Below, piece after piece: positions 9,002-58,037 of a stretch of DNA of 59,684 bases (its first letter is position 1; each line of letters starts with the position of its first letter). Position numbers and translations under genes: made by a program. The stretch is from Candidatus Omnitrophota bacterium (lineage in GTDB: Bacteria > Omnitrophota > Gorgyraeia > Gygaellales > Profunditerraquicolaceae). The stretch is from assembly GCA_028717885.1 (NCBI GenBank), contig JAQUMX010000007.1, forward strand, positions 1 to 59,684. The letters are read 5' to 3'. Under the pieces are notes generated by a model. The model searched no databases. It saw only the letters and a program-made list of their open reading frames with translations, and had not been told where the DNA came from.

Positions 9002-9015
9002 CTTCTTCTCCCCTT

Positions 9016-9147
9016 AATAAGCACATGACTTACGAACACGTAAGCGCGAGTAAGTCATTGTGCGAATTAATCCCCACGCCAATTTGCGTGGGGACAAATT
9101 CAGCCACAGGCTTACGTTCACTTTGTTCCGTAAGCCTAGGCTTTATT
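9016..9147. repeat. Multi-hairpin element, copy A (H1-H2-H3)
   Basis: TGACTTAC/GTAAGTCA, TCCCCACGC/GCGTGGGGA and AGGCTTACG/CGTAAGCCT, closed by AATAA/TTATT; homologous to copies at 18446, 51691 and 57156. Confidence 0.85.
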
Positions 9148-9150
9148 CGA

Positions 9151-9179
9151 ATTATATTACTTATTTGTTTTTTATGCAA
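9151..9179 (-). promoter_or_regulatory. Probable promoter of the GGDEF-MshEN-pilB-pilB-HD-GYP-pilC operon
   Basis: TTGCAT-17 bp-TAATAT on the minus strand; predicted start near 9144. Confidence 0.55.
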
Positions 9180-18435: not shown

Positions 18436-18445
18436 GTTTTATTTT

Positions 18446-18580
18446 AATGAGCGCATAACTTACGAACACTGCCTAGCGGCAGGGCAGGCGTAGTGTGAGT
18501 AAGTTATATGCGCGAATTAAATCCTTGACGCGTAAGCTTCAAATTCATATTAGTTGTCGGTTTCGCGTCAAGGATAAATC
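18446..18580. repeat. Multi-hairpin element, copy B (H1-H2)
   Basis: ATAACTTAC-GA-ACAC..GTGT-GA-GTAAGTTAT, linker GAATTAAA, TCCTTGACGCG/CGCGTCAAGGA. Confidence 0.85.
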
Positions 18581-51618: not shown

Positions 51619-51693
51619 TCGGGGCGAGTGGACTTGAACCACCGACCTCAGCGTCCCGAACGCTGCGCTCTAGCCAAACTGAGCCACGCCCCG
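51619..51693 (-). tRNA. tRNA-Pro (anticodon CGG), CCA not encoded
   Basis: CGGGGCG/CGCCCCG acceptor stem, D-loop AGTTTGGCTA, CAGCG-TTCGGGA-CGCTG, TTCAAGT T-loop; 3' flank is A-CTA. Confidence 0.97.
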
Positions 51694-51778
51694 TTTTGCA
51701 ATCATTTTTCTTCAGGCAAACGGATAAATTCGGCCAATAACTTACGTCGTTTTAAACTCCGTAAGTTATGGCCTGATT
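51691..51778 (-). repeat. Multi-hairpin element, copy D (H1-H2), in the tRNA-Pro leader
   Basis: GGCC-ATAACTTACG..CGTAAGTTAT-TGGCC, GAATTTA, CCGTTTGC/GCAAAACGG; the last arm overlaps the tRNA 5' end. Confidence 0.75.
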
Positions 51779-55868: not shown

Positions 55869-57077
55869 TTATAATTCCAATTGGTGGCCGAGTTTTTCTT
55901 TTTTGGTTTTAAGGTAATGATAATTTTTCGGATTCGGCTGGGTTTCCAAAGGCACTCGCTCCACTACTTTTAAACCATAGCCTTCAAGACCAACGATCTT
56001 CCTTGGATTATTGGTGAGCAAACGGATATTTTTCAATCCCAAGTCAGCTAAAATCTGCGCGCCGATCCCATAATCGCGTAAATCCGCCTTATGCCCCAAG
56101 GCCTCGTTAGCTTCTACGGTATCCATCCCCTGGTCCTGCAAACTATAGGCGCGGATTTTATCAACCAGCCCGATACCACGCCCTTCCTGGTTCATATAAA
56201 GCACCACGCCTTTTTTTGCGCTACCGATAGCCTGCATGGCTTTTTCCAGCTGCCTTCCGCAGTCACAACGCAAAGAACCAAAAACGTCTCCGGTCAAACA
56301 CTCGGAATGCACGCGTACCAGCGTCGGTTGATTATCCAAATCGCCGATAGTAAGCGCGGTGTGCGCCTTATTATTAGTGAGGTCCCGGTAAACATGCAAA
56401 GTAAAATTCCCGGAATCAGTAGGAAGATTGGCTTGGGCGACTTTTTCAATTAATTTTTCCGAACGCCTGCGGAATTCTATCAGGTTGGCAATCGAACAAA
56501 TCTTTAAACCGTGGCTGCGGGAAAATCCCAATAATTCCGGCAGGCGGCTCATTGTTCCGTCGTCATTCATAATCTCGCAGATCACTCCCGCAGGATACAA
56601 ACCGGCAAGCTTCATTAAATCAATAGCTGCTTCAGTGTGCCCGCTACGCACCAAAACACCGCCGCGGCGCGCCTTGAGCGGAAAAATATGCCCCGGCCTG
56701 ATTAAATCCTCCGGCTTACTTTGCGGATTAATCAGGACTTCAATGGTTCTTGCCCGGTCAAAAGCAGAAATTCCGGTAGTAATACCCTTGGCTGCGTCAG
56801 TTGACATCATCCAGGCGGTAGCAAAGGGGTCCTCTTGGTTAATTTTAAGTTTATCCTTAAGCATTGGCTCTAAACTTAAATTTTTAAGGCGCTCTTCCTC
56901 CATCGGAACGCAAATCAGGCCCCTGCCATATTTAGCCATAAAATTGATCTCCTGCGGCTTAAGAAAGGCGGCGCTCATCACCAGGTCGCCTTCGTTTTCG
57001 CGGTCTTCATCATCAACCACAATCACCATCTTGCCGTTCTTCAGATCATCTAGGATTTCCGGAATAGAATTAAACAC
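55869..57077 (-). CDS. ribBA: DHBP synthase / GTP cyclohydrolase II
   Basis: DDEDRENEGD, GHIFPL, RVHSECLTGDVFGSLRCDCG, QEGRGIG, LLTNNP. Confidence 0.98.
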   Translation of the reverse strand: MFNSIPEILDDLKNGKMVIVVDDEDRENEGDLVMSAAFLKPQEINFMAKYGRGLICVPMEEERLKNLSLEPMLKDKLKINQEDPFATAWMMSTDAAKGITTGISAFDRARTIEVLINPQSKPEDLIRPGHIFPLKARRGGVLVRSGHTEAAIDLMKLAGLYPAGVICEIMNDDGTMSRLPELLGFSRSHGLKICSIANLIEFRRRSEKLIEKVAQANLPTDSGNFTLHVYRDLTNNKAHTALTIGDLDNQPTLVRVHSECLTGDVFGSLRCDCGRQLEKAMQAIGSAKKGVVLYMNQEGRGIGLVDKIRAYSLQDQGMDTVEANEALGHKADLRDYGIGAQILADLGLKNIRLLTNNPRKIVGLEGYGLKVVERVPLETQPNPKNYHYLKTKKEKLGHQLEL

Positions 57078-57088
57078 TAAAAACCTCC

Positions 57089-57122
57089 AAAAAAGAAAAA
57101 ACCCGAAGAAAAATCTTCGGGC
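57089..57122 (-). terminator. Riboswitch expression-platform terminator
   Basis: CCCGAAGA-N4-TCTTCGGG plus TTTTTTCTTTTTT; its 5' arm is complementary to the aptamer 5' P1 strand (AATCTTCGGG). Confidence 0.9.
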
Positions 57123-57131
57123 AAATAACCG

Positions 57132-57502
57132 TTAACCTTCTCCCATCTGGACTTTAATGAGCACTTGACTTATGGAGTCTTCAGACGACATAAGTCAATG
57201 AGCGAATTAAATCCTTAACATTTACCTTAATTTTTGAATTTAGGTAGATGTCAAGGATCAAATTCAGGCAACAATTTATGTTCACTTTGTTCCGTAAATT
57301 GTGCCTTCATTTGACCATCGGCTCTGGAATCTCACCAGCTCATGTCCGCCACGAACCGTGGCGGACTCGCGGGCTTTACACACGGCCATATGGCACCCCG
57401 CCATATTGGATTGGCGGGTGCGCCGCTTACTGCGGCGATTGGTCGGTGTGCGCATCTAGCGCGACCGCCGGTCGAGGAATTTCACCTCTCCCCGAAGATT
57501 AA
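57132..57502 (-). ncRNA. FMN riboswitch aptamer, expanded to about 370 nt by insertions
   Basis: TCTTCGGGG..GGTGAAATTCC..GACCGGCGGT, AAAGCCCGCGAG, CTGGTGAGATTCCAGAGCCGATGGT, AAGTCCAGATGGGAGAAG in order; P1 TTAATCTTC/GAAGGTTAA; upstream of ribBA. Confidence 0.93.
57156..57311. repeat. Multi-hairpin element, copy C (H1-H2-H3), inside the riboswitch P6 loop
   Basis: TGACTTATG/CATAAGTCA, GAATTAAA-TCCTT../..AAGGA-..AATTC, H3 loop TTCACTTTGTTC identical to copy A. Confidence 0.88.
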
Positions 57503-57510
57503 TTGTGTTA

Positions 57511-57538
57511 ATTATAACACAAAGGAAATGCTTGTCAA
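57511..57538 (-). promoter_or_regulatory. rib operon promoter
   Basis: TTGACA-16 bp-TATAAT with TGn; predicted start near 57504, 2 nt before P1. Confidence 0.88.
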
Positions 57539-57560
57539 GCGAATTAGGAGCAACTATAAT
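57532..57560 (+). promoter_or_regulatory. Divergent cinA-thpR promoter
   Basis: TTGTCA-17 bp-TATAAT; the -10 ends 7 nt before ATG 57567. Confidence 0.7.
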
Positions 57561-57566
57561 AGCCTT

Positions 57567-58037
57567 ATGCCGCAAGATATTGTAAAACAAATACATAAGC
57601 TTCTGATGGAAAAACGCTCTACCCTGGCAAGCGCAGAATCCTGCACTGGCGGATTCTTGGCAAAACTGCTTACTGACTTGCCGGGAAGTTCAAAATATTT
57701 CCTGCTGGGAGTAGTTAGTTACAGCAACCGGTCAAAAACGAAAATTTTAAAAGTTCCGGCAAAGCTAATTACAAAATACGGCGCAGCTTCCCGGGAAGTA
57801 GCGTTAAAGATGGCTATTGGTGCGCAAAAATTAGCCAAAAGCGATTTCGCCGTTGCTATTACCGGCATTGCCGGCCCAACCGGCGGCTCAATTGCCAAAC
57901 CAATTGGCACAGTCTTCATCGCAGTTTGCGCTAAAAGGAAAAAAACCTGCAAAAAATTTAAATTTACCGGCAATCGGGAGAGGATCCGAAGGTTAAGCGC
58001 ACTTAAAAGCCTAGAAATGCTAAAAGGCCAGATATGA
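57567..58037 (+). CDS. cinA: CinA C-terminal domain / NMN deamidase (PncC-like)
   Basis: AESCTGG, SYSN..K, MA.G, AITGIAGP.GG, GTVFIA. Real start is MPQDIV; the longer ORF runs through the riboswitch. Confidence 0.9.
   Translation: MPQDIVKQIHKLLMEKRSTLASAESCTGGFLAKLLTDLPGSSKYFLLGVVSYSNRSKTKILKVPAKLITKYGAASREVALKMAIGAQKLAKSDFAVAITGIAGPTGGSIAKPIGTVFIAVCAKRKKTCKKFKFTGNRERIRRLSALKSLEMLKGQI

Follow-up and report, generated by a model that had tools for sequence, protein, structure and literature searches.

A flavin mononucleotide (FMN) aptamer of 371 nt, about three times the usual size (~125 nt), was found on the minus strand of contig JAQUMX010000007.1 from a Candidatus Omnitrophota bacterium (assembly GCA_028717885.1). 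The stretch that was analysed, called the window here, comprises 59,684 nt, and the whole riboswitch is housed in the 490-nt gap between ribBA (GTG start at 57077) and a divergent cinA-like gene (ATG at 57567). Judging from its sequence, it is probable (roughly 0.8) that this element is a true FMN riboswitch, acting by transcription termination and governing ribBA-ribH-nusB-PHP-ribD; the two large inserts in its loops are copies of dispersed repeats. The aptamer (also known as the RFN element) extends from the 5′ strand to the 3′ strand of P1 (57132 to 57502; features are on the minus strand unless a plus sign is given), and the pairing of P1 (57502-57132) reproduces the length of 371 nt given in an earlier note on this DNA.

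Integrity of the aptamer core was assessed by motif parsing, comparison with relatives and folding. Motif parsing recovered L2, J2/3-P3, J3/4, P5/L5, J5/6-P6 and J6/1 in order and with 0 mismatches, and J1/2 was also counted among the conserved core motifs of RF00050, the Rfam FMN family, that were found. P1 is formed by TTAATCTTC (57502-57494; alternatively written UUAAUCUUC) and GAAGGTTAA (57140-57132; alternatively written GAAGGUUAA), which make nine pairs, one of them G-U, and the helix is predicted in the minimum free energy (MFE) fold. When the two inserts (57463-57378 and 57313-57156) were removed in silico, an excised core of 127 nt was left, and this core was aligned with nine compact aptamers from Omnitrophota relatives that score 82-117 bits with RF00050 (alignment A4, 10 sequences). 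The excised core keeps 56 of the 56 columns that are invariant in the nine relatives. The 3′ core (57132 to 57153), composed of AGT, the P6 3′ strand CCA, J6/1 GATGGGA and the P1 3′ strand GAAGGTTAA, matches the relatives at each invariant column, yet it is skipped by the Rfam alignment. Within A4, helices P1, P2, P3, P5 and P6 are 94% paired, compared with 37-59% after the 3′ partners were slid by 1 to 3 columns, and double-sided changes were seen at one P6 pair and one P5 pair. For the excised core, MFE folding yields the canonical P1-P6 architecture with its six helices; in the MFE fold of the full leader, P1 and the terminator are formed and both inserts fold upon themselves. Because the core retains all of the relatives' invariant positions and ribBA lies downstream, chance can be excluded as an explanation.

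Two features of the core that had been singled out earlier were found to be ordinary for the lineage. The variant GTCCAGATG in the 3′ core is indeed present, but it is offset by GATGG, such that a U-A pair replaces a C-G pair in P6, and this compensated form occurs in 10/10 sequences of A4, which makes it the lineage norm. Likewise, P4 (57344 to 57366) is a hairpin of 10 perfect base pairs capped by a GTT loop, made by GTCCGCCACG (57366-57357) and CGTGGCGGAC (57353-57344); however, it is not a colonising element but an ordinary variable stem whose variation across relatives is unconstrained.

The signals on either side of the aptamer are also preserved. A sigma-70-type promoter (57511 to 57538) consists of TTGACA (57538-57533), a 16-nt spacer and a TG-extended TATAAT ending at 57511; it matches at 12/12 positions, its layout (TTGACAAG-N-TATAAT) recurs among relatives, and the transcript would be expected to start at about 57504, at P1 itself. 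An intrinsic terminator (57091 to 57122) is made up of a stem-loop (57122-57101) and a T-tract. The 5′ half of this terminator holds CCCGAAGATT (57121-57112), which is exactly complementary over 10 bp to AATCTTCGGG (57500-57491, within 57491 to 57502), the antiterminator 5′ strand that overlaps the 5′ strand of P1; relatives share the same overlap of P1 and terminator. The claim of the earlier note that the core motifs, P1, promoter, terminator and 10-bp antiterminator match are all preserved was thus upheld. Downstream of the terminator, the Shine-Dalgarno (SD) sequence GGAGG (57088-57084) precedes ribBA (55869 to 57088 with its SD), which is followed by ribH, nusB, a PHP-domain gene and ribD; the reading frames of ribBA, ribH and ribD are intact.

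From this arrangement a switching mechanism can be proposed. When FMN is bound, P1 would sequester its 5′ strand UUAAUCUUC and the terminator would form; when FMN is absent, the UUAAUCUUC strand would pair instead with the terminator's 5′ half (CCCGAAGAUU), allowing readthrough. Both inserts lie between the GGU and the AAAG of L3 and L6, so that the conserved loop nucleotides and all junctions are retained, and they would project outward without disturbing the loop residues. By its sequence, then, the switch probably still binds FMN and terminates transcription. The extra 244 nt would be expected to delay completion of the binding pocket and of P1 during transcription, which could alter a kinetically driven switch. 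That the inserts retune sensitivity or add a second input, as the earlier note proposed, is speculative.

The insert in L3 (86 nt; 57378 to 57463) lies between CGGCGGT and AAAG-CCCGCGAG, contains CACCCGCCA..TGGCGGGGTG and folds autonomously (z = -4.1). The ~86 nt of extra hairpins that had been noticed at this position were confirmed as repeat copies by blastn, nhmmer and R1, a covariance model built from an alignment of 28 module copies, and paralogues were detected throughout the genome. The repeating unit is a two-hairpin module of ~44 nt. Its first hairpin (hp1) has a 4-6 bp stem and a purine-rich loop of 4-5 nt, usually followed by a linking A; the second (hp2) consists of CACC, a 5-bp variable stem, a AUCNNNUA loop, the returning stem, a bulged G and GGUG. 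Conservation is seen at the bulged G and in the AUCNNNUA loop, covariation in the stems; the 28-copy alignment, which was drawn from this genome and from the FMN loops of relatives (16/28 of the R1 seeds come from FMN loops), has 98.6% of its cells paired and 10/13 pairs covarying. A first hp2 descriptor that lacked the bulged G overlooked the family. In the window, L3 contains two such modules, one inside the other: the outer module comprises hp1 (57462-57450) and the two halves of hp2 (~57448-57438 and ~57393-57379), and a complete inner module (57437-57394; R1 match 57394-57435) occupies the hp2 loop of the outer one. A nested composite at C19:29347-29424 resembles the L3 insert with 87.5% identity over 80 nt (blastn). 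Module-in-hp2-loop nesting was also seen at G010:C2:95844-95944 (L234) and in the L6 of L060. The hp2 loop of the module is therefore a recurrent insertion point, the same position being used in the L3 of the window, at C19:29347, in L234 and in L060.

With R1, 41 modules were counted in this genome. Of 24 further genomes sampled from its GTDB family, 23 contained 1-56 copies; only 5/16 genomes from other families of the order had matches. All repeat copies that were examined are intergenic. About 21 of the 33 clean module copies in this genome adjoin an SD sequence, always in the arrangement hp2′-hp1′-(U/A)AGGAGG-N-AUG with a spacing of N5-9 to the ATG (for example C1:111075, C10:27593, C11:3031, C24:15026, C30:2001 and C14:26013), and genome G010 shows the same arrangement. 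This placement suggests that the ribosome-binding site is part of the module unit or is targeted by it, or that the module has a role in 5′ untranslated regions (5′ UTRs). Others were found after terminators, as three tandem copies ahead of an Amt gene, or in the 16S leader. At C39:28-161, three sense modules stand in tandem with a period of ~47 nt upstream of an ammonium-transporter-like gene. In the window itself, a sense module (1037-1078; R1, 40 bits) lies within the rRNA leader, ~150 nt upstream of the 5′ end of the 16S rRNA. Among the L3/L6 sites, SD-adjacent sites and nested sites, no common insertion target was recognised beyond a T on the left.

The insert in L6 (~158 nt; 57156 to 57313) belongs to a different repeat. 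It lies between GATGGT (GAUGGU) and AAAGTCCAGATG (alternatively written AAAGUCCAGAUG), folds autonomously (z = -9.3) and comprises three hairpins, H1 (~57306-57266), H2 (~57265-57204) and H3 (~57203-57161). H1 resembles the reverse complement of H3, which yields a REPIN-like inverted doublet around H2. The ends of the insert are joined by a 5-bp closing stem, AAUGA/UCAUU, and because of this stem the GGU and AAAG loop residues remain adjacent. The three-hairpin family is AT-richer than the L3 module; its H2 is variable, its linkers are GAAYTTATCC and GGATTTAATTCGCAC, and it ends in GTGCTCATTAAA. The earlier note was right that the P6 loop holds a full copy of a palindromic family, with paralogues dispersed across the genome, but it took the inserts for members of one repeat family; they represent two unrelated families, nested two-hairpin modules in L3 and a three-hairpin doublet in L6.

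An nhmmer search with the H3 unit gave 24 matches in this genome, of which ~15-20 are real copies. Paralogues of the L6 insert were located at C12:6319, C18:475, C7:9013, C6:21837, C1:1830, C59:1069, C27:3704, C9:46052 and on C43 (two copies), and the best of them is 81% identical over 115 nt. Several three-hairpin copies lie between a promoter and a ribosome-binding site, ahead of what appear by eye from the translations to be groEL-like, nusG-like and rpsT-like starts. Three further copies occur in the window: a full copy at 9013-9165 between a promoter and the start of a GGDEF gene, an H2+H3 copy at 18443-18524 with an extra hairpin nested in its H3 loop, and an H3-like unit at 51722-51775 (+) that adjoins a tRNA (51619-51693). 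Beyond this genome, the H3 unit was present in 20/40 relatives searched, with identities of up to 95-96% across genera. In one such comparison a 63-nt H3 unit is 91-96% identical between genera (G008:C79:338-399, G022:C1:34460-34513 and G044:C27:3357-3419), where RibBA is ~75% identical. Conservation of this kind is unusually strong for a selfish repeat and hints at a function or at recent horizontal spread.

To place the window among its relatives, 53 distinct aptamers were parsed from genomes and metagenomes, using relaxed motif chains as strict ones missed many relatives (the relaxed parse of L025 gave a spurious 701 nt and was left out). These aptamers range from 117 to 309 nt, with a median of ~188 nt, and six of them reach at least 250 nt. 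An L3 insert was present in 23/53, an L6 insert, always at the same point, in 29/53, and an enlarged P4/P5 in 14/53; altogether 44/53 carry at least one of the three, with cores and operons intact. The other nine are insert-free and give the top scores with the Rfam model. Most of the L3 and L6 inserts in relatives are 1-3 two-hairpin modules in tandem or nested, and which loops are filled differs even among the closest relatives (RibBA 75-80% identical). None of the parsed aptamers of other relatives has the three-hairpin family in L6. The L6 insert of the window is the largest, with 161 nt between core motifs versus a maximum of 146 nt elsewhere. The aptamer of the window is therefore the extreme of a lineage-wide continuum and not a singular event; it is distinguished by its size, by the presence of two repeat families in one aptamer and by the family found in L6. 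The earlier note overstated the uniqueness of such inserts. Its own ground for refutation, that inserts of this size are common, applies in part, since inserts at these sites are frequent in this lineage. Other phyla supplied no control lengths, as the riboswitch does not stand directly before ribBA there.

Tolerance of the FMN aptamer for additional helices has precedent. Riboswitches have been reported to accommodate long, non-conserved stem-loops ("variable insertions") at specific sites, and a helix sometimes splits, at a single position, the FMN T-loops on P2, P3 and P5 (Barrick and Breaker 2007; PMC2258182). Among the relatives, the L2 T-loop of L025 (G054) contains a helix, and the L5 T-loops of L031 (G014) and L150 contain long inserts. 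From the L2 helix and these L5 inserts it follows that every T-loop of the FMN aptamer is interruptible in the Omnitrophota lineage.

Insertion variants are also known to score low in model searches (PMC2258182), and this was the case here. At the gathering score (66.2 bits for RF00050, a model of 138 positions), an Rfam search of the window gave no FMN match and reported only 16S rRNA and tRNA. In permissive searches RF00050 was the best family, with 40.1 and 38.8 bits; the alignment was correct over the first two-thirds of the model, up to the P6 5′ strand, but the 3′ end was misplaced at ~57295. The score is low because the 158-nt L6 insert pushes the model onto this false 3′ end, and the failure at the gathering score is technical, not a loss of the core. 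The expectation that the aptamer would be missed or split by covariance searches was thereby confirmed. FMN matches were obtained for 55/60 relatives, and 7 of the 55 fell under the gathering score; counting those with wrong boundaries as well, at least eight of 56 riboswitches in the relatives are affected, besides the present one. Riboflavin regulation in Omnitrophota is thus under-called, since such riboswitches are sub-threshold in Rfam or wrongly delimited; an FMN model permitting long inserts in L3, P4 and L6 would remedy the annotation.

The inserts were probably acquired as DNA, whether dispersed repeats were inserted, duplicated or recombined. Mobility of the DNA is indicated by the differing occupancy of loops, by two identical tandem module copies in L042, by the occurrence of both orientations and by the nested composite shared with the unrelated C19 site. 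Two Y1_Tnp (PF01797) genes are present in the genome (C21:855-1574 and C15:17652-18671, the latter with a long C-terminal extension), and they are candidate mobilisers of palindromic repeats. A linkage of the RAYT type was rejected, as the 300-nt flanks of both genes hold neither repeat.

Several points weigh against the view that a working riboswitch has been colonised by mobile repeats. Orthologous riboswitches were compared for empty loops, as the earlier note had proposed; besides the insert-free aptamers described above, no same-species genome with an empty loop was found in genome or metagenome collections, the nearest RibBA being 79-80% identical. Support for insertion is thus indirect, and no target duplications can be delimited. 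No mobilising enzyme was identified, the PF01797 genes being unflanked by repeats. L6 is known to touch the L2 T-loop in the folded FMN riboswitch, and an insert of 158 nt in L6 could weaken folding; the L6 inserts of other aptamers do not exceed 146 nt and are of a different family. Finally, the concentration of the two-hairpin module in FMN aptamers and its ~4:1 sense bias, which are described next, are unlike purely neutral insertion.

When R1 was run on 75 loci comprising 239 kb of rib-locus DNA, 51/52 matches fell inside FMN aptamers, a concentration to be read with the caveat that 16/28 R1 seeds came from FMN loops; the sole outsider is the 16S leader copy of the window, and four matches called outside by the motif test fall within FMN coordinates or the rib leader. 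Approximately 41 of the 51 aptamer copies are sense and ~10 are antisense, and the proposal that FMN-loop modules are always sense was dropped. The module is kept in the riboswitch even in genomes that have only 2-5 copies (e.g., G043, G012, G002 and G008). The concentration is far above that of chance insertion into tolerant DNA and points to targeted insertion, preferential retention or function. By contrast, the cobalamin riboswitch (174 nt, 93.7 bits) and the RNase P RNA (326 nt) of this genome are normal-sized and free of inserts; a thiamine pyrophosphate (TPP) riboswitch was not found in this genome. The cobalamin riboswitch (C44:2538-2711) is followed, after its terminator, by an H1-type three-hairpin unit at 2778-2843. 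The earlier idea that riboswitch loops are safe havens for repeats understates the pattern seen in FMN aptamers, and as a statement about riboswitch loops in general it is unsupported here, with the cobalamin riboswitch and RNase P RNA uncolonised. Homogenisation of FMN copies with dispersed copies of the same genome was seen here but was unclear in G017 and G010, and no general claim is made.

Two accounts would give this concentration a specific cause. One, which we put forward tentatively, is that the hairpin loops of FMN aptamers (L3, L6 and P4) and the hp2 loop of the module are landing sites of a structure-directed mini-element, or else that the module began as a peripheral riboswitch domain and then spread to sites adjacent to ribosome-binding sites. 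If so, the variable insertions of riboswitches would in either case be products of a dedicated mobile-hairpin process instead of random drift, and the modules might share an RNA-level function between riboswitch and 5′ UTRs.

The other account, which seems rather unlikely, is that selection has kept the two-hairpin module, and perhaps the L6 element too, as an accessory domain of FMN riboswitches in Omnitrophota, where it could bind a protein, help folding or pausing or supply a second regulatory input, with dispersed copies representing secondary spread or sharing an RNA-level function. The concentration in aptamers, the retention of a riboswitch copy in low-copy genomes, the predominance of sense copies, the conserved bulged G and AUCNNNUA loop with covarying stems, and the fixed position and orientation of dispersed copies beside ribosome-binding sites all agree with selection. 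A selected domain, however, would not be expected to vary in presence and in the loop occupied (L3, L6 or P4) between close relatives, to be absent from the highest-scoring aptamers, or to occur in 0 to 3 copies per loop, tandem or nested and at times antisense; moreover, the L6 insert of the window is of another family, which occurs in no other relative's L6.

It is more doubtful still that the riboswitch has decayed, the L6 insertion having broken the L2-L6 contact or the folding pathway so that FMN sensing was lost and one state was locked or bypassed. The unmatched size of the L6 insert and the Rfam score of just 40 bits could be taken in this sense, as could a free-energy calculation in which P1 plus terminator was favoured by ~12 kcal/mol over the antiterminator state. 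Yet the low score is explained by the wrong 3′ end of the model, and all invariant core positions, P1, the terminator and the antiterminator are intact. The preserved ribBA, ribH and ribD frames argue against a locked-off state, 29 relatives cope with L6 inserts at that position, and the 5-bp stem that closes the insert on itself leaves GGU and AAAG adjacent. That the repeats were misjoined into the riboswitch during assembly, the source being a metagenome-assembled genome (MAG) of 66 contigs that is 88% complete, is hardly credible, given that each insert has the proper collinear half of a single aptamer on either side and joins the loops exactly, that the 73-88% identity to paralogues is too divergent to confuse an assembler, and that independent assemblies of relatives carry similar inserts at the same sites.

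A functional FMN riboswitch with dispersed repeats in its loops, the reading we favour, shares features with several known systems. It is like the RF00050/RFN element (e.g., that of Bacillus subtilis ribD) in its six-helix core, conserved junctions, T-loops, position upstream of rib genes and terminator/antiterminator logic. It differs in its length (371 nt versus a 138-position model), in a large P6-loop insert where the consensus has a fixed 6-nt loop, in that its inserts are identifiable dispersed repeats, one of them nested, and in its score below the gathering threshold. The repeats themselves recall the REP/BIME/REPIN elements of Proteobacteria, which are mobilised by RAYT Y1 enzymes: both are short intergenic palindromes with tens of copies per genome, copy numbers that vary strongly among relatives (0-56 here), covarying stems, and occurrence as singles, tandems or inverted doublets. 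Unlike REP/REPIN sequences, they show no recognised GTAG-type head and no RAYT gene flanked by repeats, most modules stand in one fixed SD-adjacent orientation, and the module is concentrated in one structured RNA gene. Membership of the REP/RAYT system is therefore not established. The element IS1397 reportedly inserts specifically into the loops of palindromes, and the nesting of a module in its own hp2 loop recalls such insertion. The streptococcal BOX, RUP and SPRITE elements are likewise small structured repeats inside transcribed regulatory regions, and a BOX element with T-box riboswitch motifs has been described (review; PMC3184786); the present repeats differ from these in lying within a ligand-binding aptamer, at tolerant loops, and in recurring across a bacterial family. 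A literature search found no paper on dispersed repeats inside an FMN aptamer or linking such inserts to repeats.

The window thus provides a concrete source for the variable insertions of riboswitches, namely identifiable dispersed repeats, with two families in one aptamer. The lineage also offers a natural experiment on kinetic control, in which the same core carries from 0 to 244 extra nt between the P1 strands. In addition, the concentration of the module in one RNA gene and its fixed placement adjacent to the ribosome-binding site point to an unstudied mechanism of insertion or retention in an uncultured phylum.

The riboswitch promoter is accompanied by a divergent one. On the plus strand, TTGTCA-17-TATAAT (window 57532-57567, +) matches at 11/12 positions, and its -35 box stands back to back with that of the riboswitch promoter. 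The end of this divergent promoter is only 7 nt from the ATG (57567) of the cinA/pncC-like gene, and the mRNA may be leaderless.

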